A stretch of 64,000 nucleotides of DNA, taken from contig JACDEI010000021.1 of assembly GCA_013816485.1 (NCBI GenBank), forward strand, positions 3,802-67,801, written 5' to 3'. Shown in pieces: positions 5,431-64,000 of this stretch. Below the pieces are notes generated by a model, which ran no database searches, was not told the DNA's origin, and saw nothing but the letters and a program-made list of their open reading frames with translations. A program made the position numbers and the translations under genes. This DNA comes from Planctomycetota bacterium. Lineage in GTDB: Bacteria > Planctomycetota > UBA11346. How positions within the stretch are numbered: the first letter of the stretch is position 1; every line of letters starts with the position of its first letter.

Positions 5431-5640
5431 GGGCCGGCAGCGTGCGGTGGGGCCCGGTCTGACAAGCCATGTCCTGCGTGCCACGCGCCTGGGCGAGGAA
5501 CCCTGGACATAGCGGGCGAGCCGACGCTCCCAGCCTTGCGGCTGAGTGGTCGTTGGGGTACGTTCCAGTGCGACCACGGGGGCCCGCGTCATGAGCATCG
5601 GTAGTACGGTCGACAACCTTCCGGCATCCAGCGTTGCACC

Positions 5641-6579
5641 GTGCCCAGGGCTTCTGGGCGTGAGCGGCAGGCAGATCCAGTGAATCCCGTGCCCGGCGAT
5701 CCGCTACCCGACCAGCCGGCAACGGGCGCGCCCGGCTCGATCAGCGAGTTGTTGGCCGCCGCAACTTCGCCCGCAACTTCGTCCGCAGCCTTCGATGCCG
5801 GCTTCATCCACCGCGAACGCATGGCCGGCCTGGGTGAACTGACCGCCGGCATCGCCCACGAACTGAACAACCCCATCGGTTACATCGGTAGCAATCTCAA
5901 CACCCTGCGGCGTTACGTCGAAACGGTGTCGGCGCTCATGGCGCAGGCCCAGGCGTTCATGGAGCCAGCGCAACGCGGCGCCTGGGAACAGGCGCTGGAC
6001 GCCGCGCGTTGGCCGATCATCGGCAAGGATCTGGTGGCGGTGGTCGATGAGACGCAGCAGGGCGCCGAACAGGTGAGGAACATCGTCGGCGATCTCAAAC
6101 TGCTGGCGCGTACCTCGATCACGCCAGAGCAGGGTAGCGTCGATCAGTGCGTGTTGTCGGCGCTCACGGTGTTGACGCACCAACTCAAACACCGCTGTCA
6201 CGTCGAACGCGATCTCGCCAGTCGCGACGGTCTGCTGCTGGTGCGCCCGCAGATCATCCAACTGGTGATCAACCTGGTGCACAACGCGGGGCAGGCGGTG
6301 GCGTCCGGCGGACATGTTCGTCTGACCAGCCGCAGCCAGGAGAGTCTGGTGACACTCACCATCGAGGACGACGGGCCAGGGGTCCCCGAACATCAGCGGC
6401 TGGAGATCTTCCAGCCGTTCTACACCAGCAAGAAAGGTGGCACCGGACTGGGATTGCCGATCGTCGCGCGCATTGCGCGCAACCACGGCGGCGATGTGCG
6501 GATCGACCGCAGCCCCGACCTGGGTGGTGCGCGTTTCATCGTCGAATTGCGGCACTGGCAAGGAGCGGGAGTCGCGTGA
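5641..6579 (+). CDS. Cytoplasmic histidine kinase (HisKA + HATPase_c) with no sensor or TM domain
   Basis: AGIAHELNNP H-box, NLVHNA N-box, DDGPG, FYTSK, GTGLGL; start uncertain (5641 or 5680). Confidence 0.92.
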   Translation: MPRASGRERQADPVNPVPGDPLPDQPATGAPGSISELLAAATSPATSSAAFDAGFIHRERMAGLGELTAGIAHELNNPIGYIGSNLNTLRRYVETVSALMAQAQAFMEPAQRGAWEQALDAARWPIIGKDLVAVVDETQQGAEQVRNIVGDLKLLARTSITPEQGSVDQCVLSALTVLTHQLKHRCHVERDLASRDGLLLVRPQIIQLVINLVHNAGQAVASGGHVRLTSRSQESLVTLTIEDDGPGVPEHQRLEIFQPFYTSKKGGTGLGLPIVARIARNHGGDVRIDRSPDLGGARFIVELRHWQGAGVA

Positions 6580-51917: not shown

Positions 51918-52201
51918 GGGAGTCCTAGTGGGAAGGATGCAGCAGGTACACCGCTGCTGTCATCGTCGTTGTCCACCCAACCCGATGCTTGTCAGCGGGA
52001 TGGTGTGTGAGGCCGGGCACGTATGGGATCCGCGCAGGTTGCGTCGGCATCCAGTGGTGTATTAGGTCAGGGGCTTCGCCCCCGCGGCCCGGCGGGCCTG
52101 CCACGCCAGCACGGGCAGAATGCGCCGCGTGCAACATGCAGGGTTCTGTAGGAGGGGGTTTCCCCCGTTACACCTGTACCCCAACCCGGCACATACCCCA
52201 C

Positions 52202-52735
52202 ATGCCGGCCGCGTCCTCCGATCGTGATGACACCACCCAGGTCCGCGCCGCCCTCGACGCGGAGCTGCCGCGGCTGCGTGCCTTCCTGCGTCACCTGCTG
52301 CCGCCGGCGGACGCCGACGACGTGGCGCAGGACGTGTGCCTGGAGGTCCTGCGCAGTCCTGGAGTGCTGCTGCGGGGCGACAACCCCGGCGCCTACCTGC
52401 GTGGCATCGCGCGACATCTCGCCAGCCGTCATCGCCGGCGTTACCCGCGACATCAGGCGGTGGAGGAGTACCTCGCCCTGACCTGGGATCAGGTCGAGCC
52501 GGAGGACCACGCGCAGGAACAGGCCGCACTTAAGGCGTGTATGGACGGGCTCGGCGAGCGTCTGCGGCAGATGCTCGACCTGCGCTATCAGGACGGCCTC
52601 AACGCGACCCAGATCGGTGAACGCTTGCGCATGTCCGCCGAAGGCGTGCGCATGGCGCTGATGCGTGGCCGCAACGCGCTGGCGCGTTGCCTGGGTGGAC
52701 GTCTGGCGACCCAGGACGCGGAGCGTGTGCCATGA
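52202..52735 (+). CDS. ECF sigma-70 factor
   Basis: ADDVAQDVCL, AYLRGIARH, LRYQDG...IGERL...VRMALMRGRNALARC. Confidence 0.92.
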   Translation: MPAASSDRDDTTQVRAALDAELPRLRAFLRHLLPPADADDVAQDVCLEVLRSPGVLLRGDNPGAYLRGIARHLASRHRRRYPRHQAVEEYLALTWDQVEPEDHAQEQAALKACMDGLGERLRQMLDLRYQDGLNATQIGERLRMSAEGVRMALMRGRNALARCLGGRLATQDAERVP

Positions 52736-54234
52736 GCGCAGCGCCTGCCGCGAGTGGACCATCTGCCGCGAGCGGACCATGCGTCACCTGGGGCGAACGT
52801 GCGGCGGGCATGCTCGATCCCGAGGCGGTACGCGACCAGGCCGCAGCCTTCATCGCGCATCTGCCAGGTTGCCCAGGCTGCCGCGTGGTGGTCGAGCAGA
52901 CCATCCGCTGCGAACGTCTGCTCGCCACCGCCGTGGTGCTGCGTGCACCGCAGCGCGTCACCGAGCGGCGTGGCTCGTCGACCTCGAGCATCCGACGTAC
53001 CACCGCGACCATCCGCCGCCGCAAGACACGGCCGCTGTCGTTCCTGCCGTGGGCAGGTGGCATCGCAGCGTTGCTGGCGGTCGCGGTGGTGATCGGGGTG
53101 AGCGGTCGTGACGGCACGCCGGCATTCGCCACGCTGGAGAACGCCACCGCCGTGACCATCGATGGTCGCAGTGCGCGTGCCGGTATGGTGCTCGTTCCTG
53201 GGGTCGACCTGCGTGGTGGCCCGGCACAAGTGCGGTTGGCTGATGGCACGCGTCTATGGCTCGATGCCGACACGCGTCTGTCGTTAGCCGCGGGTGGAAC
53301 GCTGCGCAGCGGTGGCCGCACGGGCGTGTTCGTCCGCCTCGATGACGGTGCGGTCGGCGTCTCGGCCAAGCCGCAGGATCCTGCCGCTCCGCTCGTGGTG
53401 CAGACGCCGCTGGCCGAGACCGTGGTGGTCGGCACTGCTTTCCGCGTCGCCCACGACAGCAGCGGTAGCGAACTGACGGTCAGCAGCGGCACGGTGAAGC
53501 TGGTGAGCAAGGACGGCGAACGCCTAGTCACCGCCGGCAGCCACGCACGGGTCGAGTTGGCACCGCCGCCGGCCACGCTCATCGCCAGCTTCAGCGCATC
53601 ATCAGTGGTCGGAACCACCGCACCCAACCAACCGCTCACGGGCTGGGCCGGTAACGGGTCGTTGCTGGCGCTGCCACCCGGCGGCAGCCAGCAGCCGAAC
53701 CTGCGTCAGCTCGACAAGGGTTATGGCCTGTGCTTCAACGGTCGTGACCAGCAGCTCGCCACGTCATTGCCGACCATTCCGGCGCAGCACGGCCTGACGC
53801 TCATCGCCCTGGTGATCCCGATCAATCCCGGTCGTGATCAGACGGTGGTTGCACTTAGTGAGGGTAAACGCGCGCGCCTGACCCTGGTGCGCCATGACCT
53901 CAATCCAGGTACCATCGCTGCGACCATCGATGGCACGGAACGTGTGCGCATCGACGTGCCGAACGGCAAACACTGGTCAGTCGCCTGTCGTTGGCAGGCG
54001 GATGGCAGCGCCGTGCTGAACCTTGCCGCGGGCGCGGGGAAGCGTGTCGCCGGGTCACCGCCCAGCGCCATCCTTGCGCCGCACCTCACGTTCGGCAGCT
54101 CGTCTCGCGGACGGGCGCTCGAAGGCGATATCATCGCCGTCGAACTGCATGCCGGTGTGCTCGATGATGCCGCGTTGGCGGCGCGTGTACGCGCCCTCGC
54201 CAGCGCCAACCGTTTCCCCATTACCGACTGGTGA
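52732..54234 (+). CDS. Anti-sigma factor: ZAS (HxxxCxxC) + TM + FecR + LamG/ConA-like domain
   Basis: HLPGCPGC; TM; LADGTRLWL...VQTPLAETVVVGTAF; C-terminal LEGDIIAVELHAGVL; ATGA overlap with the sigma gene. Confidence 0.85.
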   Translation: MSAAPAASGPSAASGPCVTWGERAAGMLDPEAVRDQAAAFIAHLPGCPGCRVVVEQTIRCERLLATAVVLRAPQRVTERRGSSTSSIRRTTATIRRRKTRPLSFLPWAGGIAALLAVAVVIGVSGRDGTPAFATLENATAVTIDGRSARAGMVLVPGVDLRGGPAQVRLADGTRLWLDADTRLSLAAGGTLRSGGRTGVFVRLDDGAVGVSAKPQDPAAPLVVQTPLAETVVVGTAFRVAHDSSGSELTVSSGTVKLVSKDGERLVTAGSHARVELAPPPATLIASFSASSVVGTTAPNQPLTGWAGNGSLLALPPGGSQQPNLRQLDKGYGLCFNGRDQQLATSLPTIPAQHGLTLIALVIPINPGRDQTVVALSEGKRARLTLVRHDLNPGTIAATIDGTERVRIDVPNGKHWSVACRWQADGSAVLNLAAGAGKRVAGSPPSAILAPHLTFGSSSRGRALEGDIIAVELHAGVLDDAALAARVRALASANRFPITDW

Positions 54235-54313
54235 AGACCAGTCGCACAGCAGAGGTGATATGCCGATCGTTGAACACGCCCTGGGTGATTGCCACCCGAA
54301 GACTGGAGAAACC

Positions 54314-57300
54314 ATGACTGCCACGTCCATGCTGTCCCGCTGCCGTCACCGTGTGTTGTCTGGCGGATTCGCCGTATTTTTTCTGGTACTGGTGATCGGC
54401 AGTGCTCATGCCGCCACCATCCCGGCCGGTTTCGCCGAGACCCAGATCGCTACCGGGCTCGACCCCACGACCATGACCTTCGCGCCGGATGGCCGGTTAT
54501 TCCTCTGCGAGAAGCCTGGGCGCGTGCGCGTGATCAAGAACGGCGCGCTGCTTGCCACACCGTTCGCCGATTTCACCAGTGTGGTCGACAACACCAACGA
54601 ACGCGGACTGATGAGCGTGTGTTTCGATCCGTCGTTCAGCAGCAACAACTGGGTCTACGTCTACTACACGCGCAAGGAGGGCACGCGGCGTTTCCACCGG
54701 GTCGGGCGCTATACCGCCAGCGGCGATGTCGCTAGCGGCGGTGAGAGCGTGATCATCGACCTGAGCGACCTGGGTGGCGCCGGCAATCACAACGGCGGTG
54801 GCCTGCGTTTTGGTCAGGACGGCAAGCTTTACATCTCCACCGGTGAGAACGCCAACGGCGCGAACGCGCAGAACACCGGCAACCAGCTCGGCAAGCTGCT
54901 GCGCATCAACAAGGACGGCTCGATCCCGACGGATAATCCCAACTACAACAACGCCAACTACACCGGCAACAACCGCGCGATCGTCGCGCTCGGTCTGCGC
55001 AATGCCTTCACCCTCGCTGTGCAACGCACCACCGGCTTGCTCTACGTCAACGATGTCGGCGCGAGTTATGAGGAGATCCACCGTTACGATACCAATGTCG
55101 CGCCGATCCATCGCAACTACGGCTGGAGCACCATCGACGGCCCGATCGGTTCGCAGACCGCTCCGAGCGGCTACGCCAATCCGGTGCACGCCTACAACAC
55201 CAACAAGAGTGCGATCTGCGGCGGTGATTTTTACAACCCGCTGAGCCCTGGGGGCGATGCCTTCCCATCGTCGTACACCGGCAAGTACTTCTTCTGCGAC
55301 TATACGGGGTGGATCAAATACCTCGATCCGAGCAGCGGCACGCGCACGGATTTCGCCACCAGCGTCGCGCGCCCGATCGATGTCGAGATCGCTCCTGACG
55401 GTGCGCTGTGGTACATCGCGCGCGCTGGTATGGGCGGTGGTTCGGATGCGGACAACACCTCGACCACCAATGGTTCGCTCTGGCGCATGCGCTGGACCGG
55501 CGGTGGTCAGGCCAACCGCGTGGCGTTCATCCAGCAGCCGAGCACCATCAACGCGGGAGCGACCATCAGCCCGGCGGTGCGCGTGGCGATCCAGGATTCC
55601 TCCGGCAACACCGTGACCTCGTCGACGGCGACGGTGACCGTGGCGATCGGGACCAATCCGGGCGGCGCGACGCTCGCGGGAACCACCACCGTGGCGGCGG
55701 TGAACGGCGTGGCGACCTTCAGCAATCTCAGCCTGAACAACGTCGGCAGCGGCTACACGCTCACCGTGTCGTCGTCGGGTCTGAGCGGCGCGACCAGCAG
55801 CACCTTCAACGTCCAGGCGCAGGTGGCGACCCCGGTGATCACACCGGATGGCGGCAGCTACAGCGGGCCGGTGTGGGTGCAGATCACCACCGCGACCAGC
55901 GGCACCACCATCCGCTACACCACCGATGGTTCGACGCCGAACGGTTCGTCGTCGACCTACAGCGGACCGTTCCAACGCACGGCAACCACCACGGTGCGCG
56001 CCTATGCCACGCGCAGCGACTTCAGCGACAGCACGGTGGCTTTGGCGACGATCAGCGTGAACGGTGCGACTGCGTACGGCATCGACTACCGTCCCCCGGT
56101 CACCGGAATTGCCATGCCGGCGGCGGTGACTGGCACGATGCCGGGCACGTTGTCGGGGACCGGCGTGTTCAGCACCGCCAGTTCGCTGACGGTCAAACCC
56201 GGTGTGGTGCCCTATGACATGATCAATCCGTTGTGGTCGGACAACGCGGACAAACGCCGGTGGGTCGCCCTGCCGGGCACGGCGAAGATCGGCTTCAACG
56301 CCACTGGTGAGTTCACCTGGCCTGGTGGCACCGTGCTGGTCAAACATTTCGAGATCGCCAAGTCCGGTGGCGGCACGCGGCGGTTGGAGACCCGCGTGCT
56401 GGTGCTCGATGCCGCCGGCACCAACGGCTATGGCGTGACCTACAAGTGGAGAGCCGACAACAGCGAGGCCGATCTGGTGGCCGCGGGCGGACAGGACGAG
56501 GTGCTGAGCGACGTGGCCGGTTCGCCGACCTGGCGCTACCCGTCGCGTGACCAGTGCCTGCAATGCCACACCACCACCGCTGGTTTCGTGCTGGGACCGA
56601 AGACGCGCCAGCTCAACCGCAGCTACGCCTACCCGAGCGGTCGCAGTGACAACCAGCTGCGCACCTGGAACTACCTGCAGATGTTCAGCAACCGCATCGA
56701 TGAGGGGGCCATCGCTGGCCTGCGCAAGCTGGTGTCGATCACCGACACCGGCGCATCGGTGGAGACCCGGGTGCGTTCGTATCTCGATTCCAACTGCGCT
56801 GGTTGCCACCGCCCAGGGGGCAGCGGGGCGGCGTTCGACACGCGCTTCGATGTCGCCATGGATCAGCAGGCGATCATCCACGGCGACCTGCGCGATGCGC
56901 TCGGTATCAGCGGCGCGAAGGTGGTGGTGCCGCGGGATCTGGCCAAGTCGGTCATGCACCTGCGTATGCAGTCGAACGATCCGGTGCGGCGCATGCCGCC
57001 GGTGGGCCGCAACGTGGTCCACAGCGCGGCGGTGGATCTGATCGCGCAATGGATCGGAGCGCTGCCGAACGGCAGCGGCCTCACAGGCGAGTACTGGACC
57101 AACCAGGACAAGACCTTCACCGGCACGGCGACGGTGACGCGCACCGATGCAGTGGTCGATTTCACCTGGGGCAACGGCTCGCCGGATGCGGCAATCACCG
57201 CTGACAAGTTCACCGTGCGTTGGACCGGCAAGGTCCAGCCGGCGGTGAGCGAGACCTACACCTTCTTCACCACCACTGATGACGGCGTGCGGCTGTGGGT

Positions 57301-58264
57301 GAACAACCAGCTCGTCATCGACCAGTGGGTCGACCAGGCACCGACCGAATCGAGTGGCAGCATCGCCCTGACCGGTGGCACGCAGTACGACGTGAAGCTT
57401 GAATACTTCGAGAACGGCGGTGGTGCCGAAGCCGAGCTGCGCTGGTCGAGCCCATCGACTTTCAAGGCGATCGTGCCGATGTACCGCCTGTTCCCCGCCA
57501 GCGGCGGTAGCCAGACCTTCGCCAGTCTGGTGGTGACGCCGGCCTCGGCGACGGTGGTCAACGGTGGCTCGGTGCGTTTCCGTGGTGAAGCACGCGATGG
57601 CAGCGGCGCGCCGCTCTCATCACAGCCGACCATCACCTGGACGGTCAGCGGCGGCGGCAGCATCGCGGCGGACGGCACCTTCACGCCGTCCACCGTCGGC
57701 GGGCCGTACACGGTCACCGGCAGCGCGACGGTCAGCGGCGTGACGCGCACCAACACCTCGCAGGTGACGGTGACCGCGGCGTTCAGTGCCAAGATCAACT
57801 TCCAGCCGGCGAGCTCGCCGGTGCCGTCGGGCTGGCAGGTCGATGCCGGACTGGTCTACGGTTCACGCGGCAATGGCCTGACCTATGGCTGGAACGCCGG
57901 CGTCGCCGATACGCTGCGCGATCGCAACCTGCTGAGCGATCAGTCTCGCGACACCCTGGTGCATCTGCAGAAGCCCACGGTGCCCGATGCGGTGTGGGAG
58001 CTCGCGGTGCCGAACGGCACCTACCAGGTAGTGGCGGTCAGCGGTGATCCAGGATACTTCGATGGAGTGTTCAAAACCACGGCCGAAGGCACCTTGATCA
58101 TCAACGGCACACCGACCACCGGCAACCGTTTCGTCGAGACGGTCACCGGTGGCGCGACGGTGATCGTCAGCGATGGCAGGTTGACGCTGCGCAGCGGCAG
58201 TGGGGCGGCGAACAACAAGCTGAATTCCGTCGAAGTCGTCCAAGTCCCGGTCGCGATCCAGTGA
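54314..58264 (+). CDS. Large secreted protein: PQQ glucose/sorbosone dehydrogenase + Ig/FN3-like + two c-type heme motifs + PA14 + Ig + carbohydrate-binding-like domain
   Basis: ERGLMS, NHNGGGLRFGQDGKLY, GLRNAF; IRYTTDGSTP; CLQCH and CAGCH; FTVRWTG...DDGVRLWV. Confidence 0.88.
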   Translation: MTATSMLSRCRHRVLSGGFAVFFLVLVIGSAHAATIPAGFAETQIATGLDPTTMTFAPDGRLFLCEKPGRVRVIKNGALLATPFADFTSVVDNTNERGLMSVCFDPSFSSNNWVYVYYTRKEGTRRFHRVGRYTASGDVASGGESVIIDLSDLGGAGNHNGGGLRFGQDGKLYISTGENANGANAQNTGNQLGKLLRINKDGSIPTDNPNYNNANYTGNNRAIVALGLRNAFTLAVQRTTGLLYVNDVGASYEEIHRYDTNVAPIHRNYGWSTIDGPIGSQTAPSGYANPVHAYNTNKSAICGGDFYNPLSPGGDAFPSSYTGKYFFCDYTGWIKYLDPSSGTRTDFATSVARPIDVEIAPDGALWYIARAGMGGGSDADNTSTTNGSLWRMRWTGGGQANRVAFIQQPSTINAGATISPAVRVAIQDSSGNTVTSSTATVTVAIGTNPGGATLAGTTTVAAVNGVATFSNLSLNNVGSGYTLTVSSSGLSGATSSTFNVQAQVATPVITPDGGSYSGPVWVQITTATSGTTIRYTTDGSTPNGSSSTYSGPFQRTATTTVRAYATRSDFSDSTVALATISVNGATAYGIDYRPPVTGIAMPAAVTGTMPGTLSGTGVFSTASSLTVKPGVVPYDMINPLWSDNADKRRWVALPGTAKIGFNATGEFTWPGGTVLVKHFEIAKSGGGTRRLETRVLVLDAAGTNGYGVTYKWRADNSEADLVAAGGQDEVLSDVAGSPTWRYPSRDQCLQCHTTTAGFVLGPKTRQLNRSYAYPSGRSDNQLRTWNYLQMFSNRIDEGAIAGLRKLVSITDTGASVETRVRSYLDSNCAGCHRPGGSGAAFDTRFDVAMDQQAIIHGDLRDALGISGAKVVVPRDLAKSVMHLRMQSNDPVRRMPPVGRNVVHSAAVDLIAQWIGALPNGSGLTGEYWTNQDKTFTGTATVTRTDAVVDFTWGNGSPDAAITADKFTVRWTGKVQPAVSETYTFFTTTDDGVRLWVNNQLVIDQWVDQAPTESSGSIALTGGTQYDVKLEYFENGGGAEAELRWSSPSTFKAIVPMYRLFPASGGSQTFASLVVTPASATVVNGGSVRFRGEARDGSGAPLSSQPTITWTVSGGGSIAADGTFTPSTVGGPYTVTGSATVSGVTRTNTSQVTVTAAFSAKINFQPASSPVPSGWQVDAGLVYGSRGNGLTYGWNAGVADTLRDRNLLSDQSRDTLVHLQKPTVPDAVWELAVPNGTYQVVAVSGDPGYFDGVFKTTAEGTLIINGTPTTGNRFVETVTGGATVIVSDGRLTLRSGSGAANNKLNSVEVVQVPVAIQ

Positions 58265-60515: not shown

Positions 60516-61223
60516 TCACCCGTTGGCGACCAGTTCCATCAGCACCTGGGCGGCGCGCGCGGGATCCTCCTCCGCTCCCAATTCACCCGCCAACCGCAGG
60601 CGTTCGACGATCGCCTGCTGCAACAACATCCGCGCCTTGGCCAGCCGCCGATGACACGAGGTCAGCGGGATGCCGAGTTCCTTCGCCACGTCGCGCAGCG
60701 TCTTGCCGTCGATCAGGTTGGCCTTGAGCACGGCGTAGGCCTCCGGCTCCAGTGTTCCGTCGCCGGCCCAACGTTGCAGGTCGTCGAGCGCCTGCTGCAG
60801 CACGCTGAGCGCCCAGGCGCGGTCCATCGCCTGGCGTTGATCCGGCGCCGGCACGTCGCTGGCCAAGCGGTCGACCATCGGTGAGTCGTCCTCACCCGCG
60901 GCATCGATGCTGGCGTGGTCGCGCCGACGTTCATGGCGGATGGCGTTGAGCGCCGCCAGCCACGCAAGGTTCATTAAGTAGTAGCGGAAGCGCGAGCCAC
61001 TGCCGGGAGCGGCGCGTGACAGCAGCTCTGGTTTGCGCATTAGGTCGAGCAGCACGTCCTGGATCACGTCGTCGACGCGCTCGCGTCGTTCTCCCGCCAG
61101 CCGTCGACGCAGGTACTCGCCCACCGCATCGGCATACAAACCCACCAACGCCGCCGCTTGCTGCGGCTGGTCCGGCAGTCGGGCAATCAAACTCCAACGG
61201 GTGGCGGGGAAATCGACGGGCAT
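60516..61223 (-). CDS. ECF sigma-70 factor with N-terminal FPATRWSL motif
   Basis: FPATRWSLI, DDVIQD, GSRFRYYL, DRAWA, HRRLAKAR. Confidence 0.88.
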   Translation of the reverse strand: MPVDFPATRWSLIARLPDQPQQAAALVGLYADAVGEYLRRRLAGERRERVDDVIQDVLLDLMRKPELLSRAAPGSGSRFRYYLMNLAWLAALNAIRHERRRDHASIDAAGEDDSPMVDRLASDVPAPDQRQAMDRAWALSVLQQALDDLQRWAGDGTLEPEAYAVLKANLIDGKTLRDVAKELGIPLTSCHRRLAKARMLLQQAIVERLRLAGELGAEEDPARAAQVLMELVANG

Positions 61224-61352: not shown

Positions 61353-63896
61353 TCACGGCAGACGCACCGTCACTGCGGTATCGGCCTGCCGCAGGTCGAC
61401 CGTCGTGGTTACTGTGCGGCCCTGGTGCACGACGGAGATCTCTGCTGTGCCACGCCAGGCAGTCAACGTGCTGCGCCCGGTAGCATCGCTGAGCCCGCGC
61501 GGAGTCATCCATGATTCCCGGATCGAATCGTCCCACACCTGGGCATTGGGTTTGGGCGACCAGTCGTTGCGCAACATCGCTGCCTGCGGGCGGTGGTGGT
61601 CGCCAGCCCAGAAGCCCCAGGCGAGCACCGCTGTCACTGCCGGCTGGCTGGCGAACACCGTCAGCGCATCACGGGTGTAGTCGGCTTGGAGCTGGTCGTC
61701 GTCGAGGTCGACGTCGAATTCGGTGATATGAATCGGCAGGCCGAAACGCGCGAATCGTTCGATCAGGGCATTGAGGCGTTCCGGCGACGTGAGATTGCGG
61801 CCCTGGTGGCATTGCAGGCCGAGCCCGTCGAGCGGTGCACCGGCGGCGATCAGGTCGCTGATCAGACGTTCATAGAATTCCTGACGCCGCAGATCTGCGC
61901 CACCGTCATCGAGCACGCCGTAAAGATTGAGAAATCGCGGCGTGGTAGGATCCAGTTCCTTCACAGTAGTAAACCACTGCTGGAGCAGGTCGCGACCGTC
62001 ACCTTTCAGCAGCAAGTCGGCGCTGTACGGATCGTTGATCACATCCCAGGCACTGAACTGGCCACGAAAGGCGTTCACGGTTTCGCGCAGGTGACGATCA
62101 AGCCGCTCACGGATCACCAGCGGATCATCTGAGCGCGCGCGCAGGTCCGCTGGCAGATTCTCGCGTCGCAACCACACCAGCGTGTGGCCACGCACTAGCA
62201 GACCGTGCCCGCTCAGCCACGCCGTGGCGCGTTCACTCAGGGTCGGATCACGTTCACGTTCGGGCCACTTGAGGGCGTTTTCCGGCACGGCGATGTGGAA
62301 ACGGCGCAGCAGTTCGTCGCGGAAGCGTGCGTCATCGGGGTCGGCTCCCAGCAGCCGTTCGGCGACCACCGCGGTGCCGAACCGCAACGCCGGGTCGCGC
62401 ACCCGCACCGTTACCGTCGCGTCTGGCAGTGGACGACCGGCGGAATCTTCGACCCGTACCGTCACACGGCTGAGCCGGTGCTCGGCAATACGCTGTGCTG
62501 CCGCTGTTCGCCACGGCGCATCGGCGGCCCGTCCGTCATAGGTCATCTGCGGTAGCAGCGCCCGCAGCGTGGTGGCACCATGATTGGTCAGCGTCAAGCC
62601 GGCCACCTCGATGGTTTGTCCCTGACGACCGAGCCACAACTGCGCTTCCACCGTACCGGCCTGACCATCAGCGAGGACGTGGAATGGCAGCTCGATCTGC
62701 CGCCACTGATTCGTTGCGAGCAGGGCGGCACTGAGCGACTGCACCTGGCTGCTGGGATCTTCGACCACCAGTCGGGTCTGGGCTGGCCGGCCATCGCCGC
62801 TGCGCAGCCACAGGCGTGCGAGCACCGCGTCTCCCGCACTGATCGGTGCGGTGAGGGTCATGCGCACGCGCAGAGCGTACTCGCCGGTGTGCCGTGGATC
62901 GGCGATGAGATCCGTCGGCGTGCTGATGCGCAGGGCCTGGGTGAACGGCTGGCCACTGACGCTGATGATCTCACGCGGAACACCGCGGCCATCATCCATG
63001 CCGACGCTGGCGCCGACCCAGGGATCGGATGGCAGCAGCGGACTGCCCGCTGCGCCTGGGATGGTCGGCCTGGCGGGTGGTGGGATCGGAGTTGGCACCG
63101 GCCTGGGAAGACGCGCCACCATGCCGGCACCATCAAGCGTGGCGCTGTCCTCAGCCGCGATCACCAAACCGTCCCTGCCGAGTGCGGCCAGCCGTACCCG
63201 TCCGTGGTCGACCCGCAGGTGCGTAGCGCTACGCGTCACCGTCAGGGTGAACCGTGTGCCCAGGACGGTGGCGCGGCCATGGGCGGTCCCAATGACGAAG
63301 GTGGTGCCGGGCGGTTGCGTGGTCACCACGGCGGTGAGCGATCCCCGCTCAAGATGCACACGTTCCCCACTGTCCGGTTGCACCACCACGGCACTGTCTC
63401 CGGCGAGCGCGAGCGTGCTGCCATCGCCGAAGCGCAGTTCAGCAAAGGTCAACGCCGGCACTTCCAGTCGTGCTCCGGCAGGAATCCCTGCGCCGGCAAG
63501 CAGCGGCTCGCGCCCACGACGATCGACCAGCACGACACCGTCGCCACTCGTGGTGAGCACGGCGATGCCGGGTGGCGTTGTGGACGAGGCATACGGCAGC
63601 AGCAGCACGCCAACCGCCAAGAGGATGCCGGCGGCAGCAGCGAACCACAGCAACGATGGAGATCGCCGAGGCAGACGCACCGACGCACGCACACGGCGAC
63701 TCGATGGCGAGCGGTTGGATGAGCGCGCTGCGCTGTCCGGTCTGGCACAGATCTCGGCCAACATCAGGCGTTGGCGCACCAGGGCAGCGAGCTGCGTGCG
63801 CAGCTCAGCGTCCTGCTCCAACGCTTGTTCGATGGCGTTGGCCTGGGGCTCGTCGCACTCACCATCAAGCCACGCCACCAGATCGTCGCGCATCAT
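61353..63896 (-). CDS. Anti-sigma factor: N-terminal ASD + TM + FecR + CBM-like domain + GH10 domain
   Basis: LVAWLDGE; TM; FGDGSTLAL...TAHGRATVLGTRF; ENALKW, RGHTLVW, WDVINDP, GLGLQCH, ITEFD, WGFW. Confidence 0.88.
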   Translation of the reverse strand: MMRDDLVAWLDGECDEPQANAIEQALEQDAELRTQLAALVRQRLMLAEICARPDSAARSSNRSPSSRRVRASVRLPRRSPSLLWFAAAAGILLAVGVLLLPYASSTTPPGIAVLTTSGDGVVLVDRRGREPLLAGAGIPAGARLEVPALTFAELRFGDGSTLALAGDSAVVVQPDSGERVHLERGSLTAVVTTQPPGTTFVIGTAHGRATVLGTRFTLTVTRSATHLRVDHGRVRLAALGRDGLVIAAEDSATLDGAGMVARLPRPVPTPIPPPARPTIPGAAGSPLLPSDPWVGASVGMDDGRGVPREIISVSGQPFTQALRISTPTDLIADPRHTGEYALRVRMTLTAPISAGDAVLARLWLRSGDGRPAQTRLVVEDPSSQVQSLSAALLATNQWRQIELPFHVLADGQAGTVEAQLWLGRQGQTIEVAGLTLTNHGATTLRALLPQMTYDGRAADAPWRTAAAQRIAEHRLSRVTVRVEDSAGRPLPDATVTVRVRDPALRFGTAVVAERLLGADPDDARFRDELLRRFHIAVPENALKWPERERDPTLSERATAWLSGHGLLVRGHTLVWLRRENLPADLRARSDDPLVIRERLDRHLRETVNAFRGQFSAWDVINDPYSADLLLKGDGRDLLQQWFTTVKELDPTTPRFLNLYGVLDDGGADLRRQEFYERLISDLIAAGAPLDGLGLQCHQGRNLTSPERLNALIERFARFGLPIHITEFDVDLDDDQLQADYTRDALTVFASQPAVTAVLAWGFWAGDHHRPQAAMLRNDWSPKPNAQVWDDSIRESWMTPRGLSDATGRSTLTAWRGTAEISVVHQGRTVTTTVDLRQADTAVTVRLP

Positions 63897-64000
63897 GGCG
63901 CACCGTCCGGGTGTTTGAGCGACAGCCCATCCTTGACGCACGCCAGCAAGGCCGCGCGCACACGGAACATCCGCACCTTGACCCACGACAACGTGCGGCT
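63893..64000 (-). CDS. C-terminal fragment of an ECF sigma factor (region 4); 5' part outside window
   Basis: Manual translation SRTLSWVKVRMFRVRAALLACVKDG...*; ATGA overlap with the FecR-GH10 start. Confidence 0.8.
   Translation of the reverse strand, partial: SRTLSWVKVRMFRVRAALLACVKDGLSLKHPDGAP

Follow-up and report, generated by a model that had tools for sequence, protein, structure and literature searches.

SigI6/RsgI6 of Clostridium (Acetivibrio) thermocellum pairs a sigma factor with a single-pass anti-sigma factor that bears an extracytoplasmic glycoside hydrolase family 10 (GH10) domain, and RsgI6 controls glycan-degrading genes. The C-terminal GH10 domain of RsgI6 is reported to have very low activity and to have kept its binding to xylan and cellulose (PMC4711584), and RsgI paralogues carry CBM3 (carbohydrate-binding module, CBM), PA14 and other modules (PMC4711584, PMC10328401). 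In the FecI/FecR/FecA and FoxI/FoxR/FoxA systems, the gene of an extracytoplasmic function (ECF) sigma factor is followed by that of a single-pass anti-sigma factor with a FecR domain. FecR of E. coli cleaves itself at Gly181-Thr182 and FoxR at Gly191-Thr192, and this self-cleavage is not essential for signalling (PMC9249621). Here we describe a gene in a 64,000-nucleotide stretch of a Planctomycetota genome (hereafter the window; contig JACDEI010000021.1, positions 3,802 to 67,801) that unites traits of both: its product is a FecR-domain anti-sigma factor, encoded directly after an ECF sigma factor, with a GH10 barrel in which aspartate (Asp622) stands at the position of the catalytic acid/base glutamate. 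The reading we favour, with moderate confidence, is that this sensor would act as a direct periplasmic glycan receptor with attenuated catalysis, on a FecR scaffold that works independently of a transducer.

A FecR protein with a GH10 barrel

The window (G000:C69:3802-67801) belongs to a genome that is 87% complete with 3% contamination; the whole contig has 78,589 bases, and its remainder was read as locus L002. On the minus strand, the longest open frame runs over 61353..63986 with its stop at 61353, and the likely start is the ATG at 63896-63894; a public collection contains the sensor product at the identical length of 847 residues (P0002). The reading at 63900-63889 is gcgccATGATGcgc, in which the sigma stop TGA (63895-63893) overlaps the sensor ATG (63896-63894) as ATGA. 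The upstream gene encodes an ECF sigma factor (Sigma70_r2, E = 2.1e-12; r4_2, E = 6e-07) whose best NCBIfam match is TIGR02989 ('Rhodopirellula/Verrucomicrobium family') at 111.5 bits, below the cut-off of 124.55. The first-pass annotation, made from the window's sequence, had proposed a single open reading frame coupled to an upstream ECF sigma gene, and both the overlap and the sigma domains on the contig bear this out. The features are as follows.

61353..63896, minus strand: complete anti-sigma/sensor open reading frame, stop included (847 aa, P0002)
63893..64000, minus strand: 3′ end of the ECF sigma gene, which continues beyond the window to window-equivalent 64423 (176 aa; L002 2695..3225)
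63732..63896, minus strand: putative N-terminal anti-sigma domain, cytoplasmic (residues about 1-55; weak zf-HC2 match and modelled sigma interface)
63591..63653, minus strand: lone hydrophobic transmembrane stretch (residues 82-102) with an Arg-rich segment before it, read from sequence
63192..63449, minus strand: FecR domain PF04773 (residues 150-235; Pfam)
63255..63260, minus strand: Gly213-Thr214 within the FecR domain, candidate counterpart of the self-cleavage bond, kept in 11/11 fused homologues
63039..63113, minus strand: proline-rich linker (residues 262-286), read from sequence
62565..63017, minus strand: beta-sandwich module of CBM4/CBM22 fold (residues about 294-444; AlphaFold and Foldseek)
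61584..62387, minus strand: GH10 (beta/alpha)8 barrel (residues 504-771; Pfam, phmmer, AlphaFold and Foldseek)
62031..62033, minus strand: Asp622 (GAT) at the acid/base position, equivalent to Glu182 of XynA (codon and alignment)
61923..61925, minus strand: Leu658 in NLY; Asp or Glu in unfused relatives (N-D/E-Y; alignment)
61803..61805, minus strand: Gln698, following the conserved Gln695-x-His697 (alignment)
61719..61721, minus strand: Glu726, the kept nucleophile, equivalent to Glu280 of XynA (alignment)
61593..61595, minus strand: His768 (HWR to HHR; alignment)
61356..61526, minus strand: C-terminal beta-strands closing a small side sandwich, XynA-like (alignment and model)

The barrel matched the GH10 family of Pfam (PF00331) with E = 3e-34 and 119.1 bits, against a cut-off of 22.1. 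Residues 285-847 were modelled with AlphaFold from an alignment of 130 sequences, and the model reached a predicted local distance difference test (pLDDT) of 96.6 and a predicted template modelling score (pTM) of 0.94. Foldseek placed XynA of Bacillus sp. at the top for the barrel (7d89, E = 2.8e-28; 7d88, E = 3.9e-27; template modelling (TM) score 0.87 on the target), followed by many more GH10 xylanases, and phmmer aligned the sensor to 7d88 at E = 1.4e-43. A helix-hairpin ahead of the barrel and strands behind it form a small side sandwich, an arrangement also present in XynA. Besides the barrel of the sensor, no other GH10 was found in the genome.

The active site departs from that of XynA at the acid/base position. 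The phmmer alignment sets WDVNNE against WDVIND, NDY against NLY and VTEYD against ITEFD; moreover, 7d89 is the E182A/E280A mutant of 7d88, and its mutated columns coincide exactly with Asp622 and Glu726. The local reading gcc tgg gat gtg atc aac gat ccg translates as A W D V I N D P, with GAT at 62033-62031. Codon and alignment agree with the first-pass annotation, which had reported that WDVVNE reads WDVIND, that ND/EY reads NLY and that the nucleophile motif ITEFD is intact. Where GH10 catalysis calls for the acid/base Glu of WDVxNE, the sensor has Asp, and the nucleophile of TExD is in place. XynA acts on xylan and beta-glucan alike, and its activity is reported to be lost in E182/E280 double mutants as well as in Q250A and H252A (10.1101/2020.10.20.348094). 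The sensor keeps both residues that correspond to Q250 and H252, namely Gln695 and His697.

Ahead of the barrel, the domain order claimed earlier also stood, with evidence of differing kinds: FecR and GH10 were recognized by Pfam, the CBM-like module at the level of fold and the transmembrane segment from the sequence, and the N terminus gave only a weak zf-HC2 match (E = 0.019, under the cut-off). The FecR domain, which follows the single transmembrane helix, scored E = 3.1e-12 and 47.2 bits against a cut-off of 24. No Pfam CBM model matched residues 294-444, and the assignment to CBM4/22 rests on fold: modelled by itself (AF2), the module reached a pLDDT of 93.7 and gave a jelly-roll match to the CBM4 of CelK (3p6b; E = 2.3e-08, TM 0.71), with further matches to CBM4-2 of a Rhodothermus xylanase (2y6j; TM 0.72) and a CBM22 (4xuo; E = 3.5e-06), at an identity of only 13-18% to these structures. 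Pfam detected neither FecR_C nor a similar transducer-contact domain in the sensor, even at E ≤ 1, and no RsgI_N domain. In place of a transducer-contact domain, the FecR domain is followed by the proline-rich linker, the CBM and the GH10 barrel.

Asp622 in the FecR-fused homologues

Relatives were gathered from a collection clustered at 90% (31 proteins) and from the best 150 of 10,152 matches among 1.84 billion representatives, giving 179 proteins in total. As 1,415 of the matches had E ≤ 1e-30 and the best 150 were used, FecR fusions to remoter GH10 subfamilies could have escaped. With the N-terminal 285 residues as query, phmmer found a FecR part in 12 of the 179 proteins: P0002-P0010, P0012, P0075 and the N-terminal fragment P0011. 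When P0075 served as the query it found only itself, without further fused members, and a profile of the 11 full-length fused proteins returned ten proteins, none of them new.

At the acid/base column, every full-length FecR-fused protein has Asp (11/11, down to 35% identity). The remaining 168 rows hold 165 Glu, one His (P0054), one Asp (P0033) and one gap (P0011). P0033 is almost surely, to judge from its sequence, a cut copy of a fused protein, because it is a C-terminal fragment of 371 residues with 68% identity to the sensor; Glu thus accounts for 165/166 of the unfused relatives. The sole unfused relative without the acid/base Glu, the multidomain protein P0054 (1695 aa), has His in WDAINH. 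The first-pass annotation had allowed that homologues might keep NE and the Asp of this protein be private, which this partition contradicts. The nucleophile Glu is present in 11/11 fused rows and in 167/168 of the others.

Five further positions separate the two sets.

Position 658: Leu in 9 and Cys in 2 fused proteins; Asp in 128 and Glu in 37 unfused
Position 698: Gln in 10/11 fused; Phe in 95/118 unfused
Position 728: Glu in 9/11 fused, with P0002 keeping Asp; Asp in unfused
Position 749: Ala in 11/11 fused; Phe in 102/119 unfused
Position 768: His in 9/11 fused; Trp in 102/119 unfused

Elsewhere the cleft is retained. Lys543, His571, Trp575 and Trp760 are kept in all 11 fused proteins, and Glu539, Asn621, Gln695 and His697 in ten of them, the exception always being P0075, the most divergent member, whose cleft losses comprise His697 to Arg, Asn657 to Gly and Asn540 to Ser.

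In a FastTree phylogeny of 174 catalytic domains (five of the 179 rows, shorter than 250 residues, were left out), the 11 fused proteins and P0033 formed one group with a support of 90 and P0153 as its sister. An IQ-TREE quick tree was computed on 45 rows, consisting of 8/11 fused proteins and 37 unfused ones picked by distance. Both trees place their fused proteins together, to one side of a branch, and independent convergence of Glu-to-Asp in several fusions is rejected on this ground. On these trees, the change is best described as one old substitution, or very few, that was then retained. The path from P0002 to P0075 amounts to about two substitutions per site (IQ-TREE), and retention of both carboxylates over such a distance speaks for function.

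Sequence identity to the sensor was compared region by region.

GH10 barrel: 82-84% in near relatives, 52% in P0012
CBM module: 83-88% in near relatives, 50% in P0012
FecR region: 52-76% in near relatives, 32% in P0012

By this measure the GH10 barrel and the CBM are the best-conserved parts, and the sensor appears to be under purifying selection. The tail of P0002 (residues 791-847; 61356-61526) is only 32-33% identical to P0003-P0007, though the barrels there are 82-84% identical, and 77% identical to P0008; it may be recombined or fast-evolving, or the pattern may be an alignment effect.

Signal input and output at the locus

The earlier statement that no TonB-dependent transducer adjoins the gene within the window was confirmed and extends to the whole contig: no TonB-dependent receptor was found in the window or elsewhere on the 78,589 bases, so that none lies just outside the window on the assembled sequence. 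The seven matches to PF00593 in the genome (six above the cut-off) are all on other contigs. The only STN match of the genome falls in a 551-residue protein that also matches FecR_C and carries Secretin and Secretin_N domains, which mark it as a secretin and not a transducer. Overall, no TonB receptor with an STN signalling domain was detected in the 87%-complete genome, compared with 24 FecR-domain proteins, and 0/24 of these matched FecR_C at E ≤ 0.001. Full-length orthologues of the sensor occur in two other Planctomycetota metagenome-assembled genomes (locus L003, 74% identity; locus L004, 62%; one genome per species), and no TonB receptor was found beside them among the scanned open reading frames of at least 200 residues.

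The other 23 FecR proteins of the genome differ in what follows the FecR domain: four have PA14, two Laminin_G_3, one CBM96 and one Beta_helix; in another, 3keto-disac_hyd matches weakly, and no extra domain was recognized in the remaining 14. With PA14, LamG, CBM96 or beta-helix modules on 8/23 of them, the FecR scaffold is, by domain content, routinely joined to sugar-recognition modules in this organism, and the GH10 fusion is one of a set. A second pair lies in the window at 51989-58264 (plus strand), where an ECF sigma gene (51989-52735) is followed by a FecR anti-sigma gene (52687-54234; 515 aa, without a recognized C-terminal domain) and then by a gene for a secreted protein of 1413 residues that combines glucose/sorbosone dehydrogenase, CHB_HEX_C and PA14 domains. 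Genes are laid out in the same way at the GH10 locus.

On the cytoplasmic side, complex prediction for the sigma factor and sensor residues 1-80 gave a score of 0.70, compared with 0.00 for the best of three controls; a mark of 0.70 was reached by 58/80 solved complexes and 2/110 mismatched pairs. The contacts agreed between runs by at least 71%, with a partner pLDDT of at least 63, and the modelled interface joins sensor residues 2-53 to sigma regions 75-113 and 124-163. As sigma/anti-sigma complexes have already been solved, the score may mirror likeness to them and is not proof of binding. On the other side of the membrane, the NCBIfam FecR match places sensor residues 153-236 on FecR positions 116-200, which brings Gly213 near Gly181 of FecR, an equivalence by position and not by residue-by-residue alignment. 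The genome also encodes proteases of the M50 (RseP-type) and S41 (Prc/CtpA-type) families.

The genes around the pair concern glycans. A gene for a secreted GH5-PKD-PA14 protein (L002 3267-5891, minus strand; Cellulase, E = 4.6e-39) precedes the sigma gene on the same strand, at a distance of 41 bases. Among solved structures, this protein is closest to the endoglucanases CelE2 (E = 1.3e-80) and Acidothermus E1 (E = 1.7e-79). The PA14 part of this neighbour matches the PA14 sensor of RsgI3 of C. thermocellum (E = 1.6e-70), and PA14 is the domain found on four FecR anti-sigma factors of the genome. A CE15 glucuronoyl esterase gene (GCE_fung, E = 2.1e-34) is divergent from GH5. Since 41 bases separate the GH5 stop from the sigma start and the sigma and sensor genes overlap, GH5, sigma and sensor are probably a single, autoregulated operon.

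The order CE15 (divergent)/GH5, sigma, sensor is common to the three species. The intergenic regions between CE15 and GH5 (418, 312 and 288 bases) cannot be aligned save for one bipartite element, which consists of TCTGTAACC, 14 non-conserved bases and CGGATG(G/T)TT, with its end 39-42 bases ahead of the GH5 start codon in 3/3 species; the shared form is GTAACC-N14-CGGATG. The strict pattern TGTAACC-N14-CGGAT has a single copy in the genome, at this site, and looser patterns have 5 and 16 sites. ECF promoters usually combine an AAC-containing -35 box with a CG-containing -10 box at such spacing. What supports the motif is its conserved position in three related species and not its rarity. In the same intergenic region, this genome alone has about 25 tandem copies of a 7-base unit of the CCGAAYR type (L002 about 5500-5690); the corresponding place holds an inverted pair of 9-mer repeats in L004 and a GC-rich palindrome in L003.

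Downstream, the genes differ between the species. Here the sensor is followed by a second ECF-like sigma gene and then by a YidK-type sodium:solute symporter (PRK10484, 684 bits), in L003 by ackA-pta, and in L004 by a desaturase and an acyltransferase and then by the second sigma and the symporter. The second sigma (60516-61223, minus strand) has 235 residues from Met43 of its open reading frame, matches sigma70-ECF with 53.5 bits and has no anti-sigma gene beside it. Its counterpart in L004 shows 90% identity and is 2.5 kb more distant; this conservation far exceeds that of the sensor (62%). It was not found in L003.

These elements suggest how a signal could pass. With no ligand present, the N-terminal domain would keep the sigma factor bound. 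Xylan-type chains or oligosaccharides reaching the periplasm would occupy the cleft and the CBM, and their occupancy would open the periplasmic part to site-1 processing by the S41 protease, at the FecR Gly-Thr bond, or both. An RseP-type M50 protease would next cut within the membrane and free the sigma factor, which would transcribe the GH5-sigma-anti-sigma operon from the GTAACC-N14-CGGATG promoter, a positive feedback; the divergent CE15 gene is perhaps under the same control. The ligand could be xylan or beta-glucan, because XynA acts on both and the operon partner is a GH5 of endoglucanase type. Glucuronoxylan is the ligand suggested by GH10, the CBM4/22 fold and CE15 taken together.

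Competing readings and known systems

The view that the sensor is a direct glycan receptor draws on its architecture, the clade-wide Asp, the synteny, the conserved motif, the lack of detected transducers and the presence of the proteases; from these we infer glycan binding, low activity, proteolytic signalling and the regulon. Most likely, judging from the cleft residues and nucleophile that are kept and from the changes at the acid/base and at several residues near the -1/+1 site, the barrel holds chains or oligosaccharides of the beta-1,4-xylan type, possibly also of beta-glucan, with little or no cleavage. The first-pass annotation had suggested that the domain binds or traps xylan-type glycans and signals directly to the sigma factor. 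Direct sensing gained from the clade-wide Asp and the lack of a transducer; trapping became unlikely. The acid catalyst is required to form the glycosyl-enzyme when the substrate is a natural glycoside, and a weakened acid mainly slows this first step. Because the intermediate itself depends on that catalyst, holding is favoured over covalent trapping.

Several points weigh against this reading. The fused proteins form one clade, so the link between Glu-to-Asp and the fusion represents one historical event and carries no statistical weight; the loss of the acid/base Glu, whose possible enrichment in fusions the first-pass annotation had proposed to test, does partition perfectly between Asp and Glu, and it is this single clade that keeps the partition from being statistical enrichment. 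In the IQ-TREE analysis, the fused side has a support of 100 for its core and 82 with P0012, and only 59 once P0075 is added. The family is small and narrow (11 full-length sequences). In an order survey of 48 genomes, all of one family and mostly incomplete, the full-length protein is present in 3/11 genomes of its own genus (counting the present one). The query detected none in the 37 genomes from 17 other genera; several of these contain unfused CBM-GH10 relatives of 34-38% identity. The promoter-like motif comprises 12 fixed bases and would be expected by chance about 0.65 times per genome. With the genome at 87% completeness, a transducer could sit on an unassembled piece. The GH5 partner in the operon is of the endoglucanase type, and beta-glucan is a candidate ligand besides xylan. 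Lastly, Asp can serve as the general acid in other glycosidase families, and a protein whose enzyme activity is residual or altered would likewise be expected to retain both carboxylates, Asp622 and Glu726, strictly.

The strongest of the alternatives is that the GH10 domain is still a working membrane-tethered xylanase or transglycosylase of the periplasm, slower or altered in specificity, with Asp622 as its acid/base; such a protein would be bifunctional, and its signalling might depend on turnover and not on occupancy alone. We consider this unlikely. In its favour, both carboxylates are invariant (11/11), the cleft is largely intact and the barrel strongly constrained; as the only GH10 detected in the genome, the barrel might be needed for some xylan-directed chemistry; the GH10 of RsgI6, too, keeps low activity (PMC4711584). 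Set against these are the Glu of 165/166 unfused relatives and the changes that accompany the fusion, namely N-D/E-Y to N-L-Y, Phe698 to Gln and Trp768 to His. Retaining glycosidases with a shortened acid/base are orders of magnitude less active on natural substrates. Our literature search found no paper on Glu-to-Asp variants at the acid/base.

An improbable alternative holds that the barrel no longer binds sugar and has a structural or protein-interaction role, such as docking a secreted enzyme or an outer-membrane partner from which the signal comes. The further cleft losses of P0075 and the extensions of unrecognized nature on 14/23 other FecR proteins would fit it, but Glu539, Lys543, His571, Trp575, Asn621, Gln695, His697, Glu726 and Trp760 are kept as a set in 10/11 fused proteins, a module of CBM4/22 fold adjoins the barrel as in unfused xylanases, and sibling FecR proteins carry PA14, CBM96 and LamG modules.

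We regard it as very improbable that the sensor is a classical FecR protein of cell-surface signalling, with a TonB-dependent transducer encoded elsewhere and GH10 as an accessory. The absence of a receptor from the 78.6-kb contig and from the surroundings of the L003 and L004 orthologues, the placement of the one STN domain in a secretin, the lack of a FecR_C-type C-terminal domain and the ratio of 24 FecR proteins to 0 detected transducers all oppose it, even though the FecR domain and the Gly-Thr pair are present, the genome is incomplete and six TonB-dependent receptors above the cut-off are encoded elsewhere. That Asp622 is a sequencing or assembly error or a private change is ruled out by its presence in 11/11 fused homologues from independent assemblies, and the related idea of a decaying relic can be dismissed in view of a barrel that is the best-conserved part of the protein.

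Returning to the direct glycan receptor, a bolder version would have the lineage run a whole family of transducer-independent FecR sensors, each with a glycan module of its own, be it PA14, LamG, CBM96, a beta-helix or, here, CBM4/22 with GH10, and the Asp622/Glu726 site tuned and not dead; we hold this to be rather doubtful. If true, it would amount to a convergent Gram-negative equivalent of the clostridial SigI/RsgI network, reading polysaccharide in the periplasm, and very slow turnover of the bound chain would time the 'on' state of the sensor, so that signal strength would track substrate supply.

The locus can be placed among described systems as follows. XynA of Bacillus sp. (7D88/7D89), the closest solved relative of the barrel, has N- and C-terminal strands that likewise form a side sandwich, but it is a free and active xylanase/beta-glucanase with Glu182 and has neither a CBM4/22 module nor a FecR part. 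RsiV/SigV resembles the proposed mechanism in that the extracytoplasmic domain of the anti-sigma factor binds the signal, lysozyme, directly and triggers regulated proteolysis (PMC4183432), whereas its domains and ligand are unrelated and its host is a Firmicute. The ECF240 group (former ECF10) linked to polysaccharide utilization loci (PULs) of Bacteroidota likewise has an ECF/FecR-type pair for carbohydrate use beside glycan-degrading genes (PMC7826278); there the glycan is sensed by an outer-membrane SusC-like transducer, whereas here the sensor would be inside the anti-sigma factor itself. FecR-like anti-sigma factors are named for ECF239-243 and ECF267, with no GH fusion mentioned in the parts of that survey available to us (PMC7826278). 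Our literature search, part of it at the level of partial texts, found no FecR-GH10 fusion, the papers naming both concerning separate genes in PULs or clusters, and no FecR-sensor fusions for Planctomycetes/Verrucomicrobia, although the supplementary group tables of PMC7826278 may describe such proteins.

FecR and FoxR share with the sensor the Gly-Thr pair near the self-cleaved bond and the availability of Prc- and RseP-type proteases (PMC9249621). They differ from it in having a TonB transducer, an STN partner and a FecR_C-type contact domain, where the sensor has the fused CBM and GH10 as its putative input, and the partner sigma lies outside the FecI-like groups as far as NCBIfam matches show. 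By its domains the sensor belongs to the FecR family and lacks two defining features of cell-surface signalling, the contact domain and the transducer. FecR anti-sigma factors are the textbook partners of TonB transducers, and 24 FecR proteins without a detectable transducer, several with sugar-binding modules attached, point to a second, direct mode of input.

Compared with RsgI6, the sensor has no RsgI_N domain, its partner is an ECF sigma factor close to TIGR02989 and not SigI, a FecR domain replaces the periplasmic domain of RsgI with its Asn-Pro autocleavage, and the Gram-negative-type planctomycete host places the sensor in the periplasm; the first-pass annotation's view of RsgI as a different scaffold is therefore upheld. 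Asp is at the acid/base throughout the fused clade. The variety of modules among RsgI paralogues (CBM3, PA14) resembles that of the FecR paralogues of this genome. The likeness to RsgI sensors is one of functional analogy, with the sensor outside the RsgI family. A GH10 glycan sensor on an anti-sigma factor is already known, and what is new is the transducer-free FecR scaffold in Planctomycetota and the clade-wide Asp. The GH10 member would be the clearest case of the direct mode: an enzyme fold recruited once, its acid/base shortened and kept so over deep divergence, with cleft and nucleophile preserved. It may be seen as a natural experiment in which a glycosidase turns receptor, in parallel to RsgI6 and from unrelated parts. 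With one promoter, one sigma factor and one sensor, the locus offers a compact and directly testable glycan-responsive control system for Planctomycetota, whose polysaccharide sensing is poorly understood. On this comparison, the sensor is best read as a Gram-negative, FecR-based counterpart of clostridial RsgI6.

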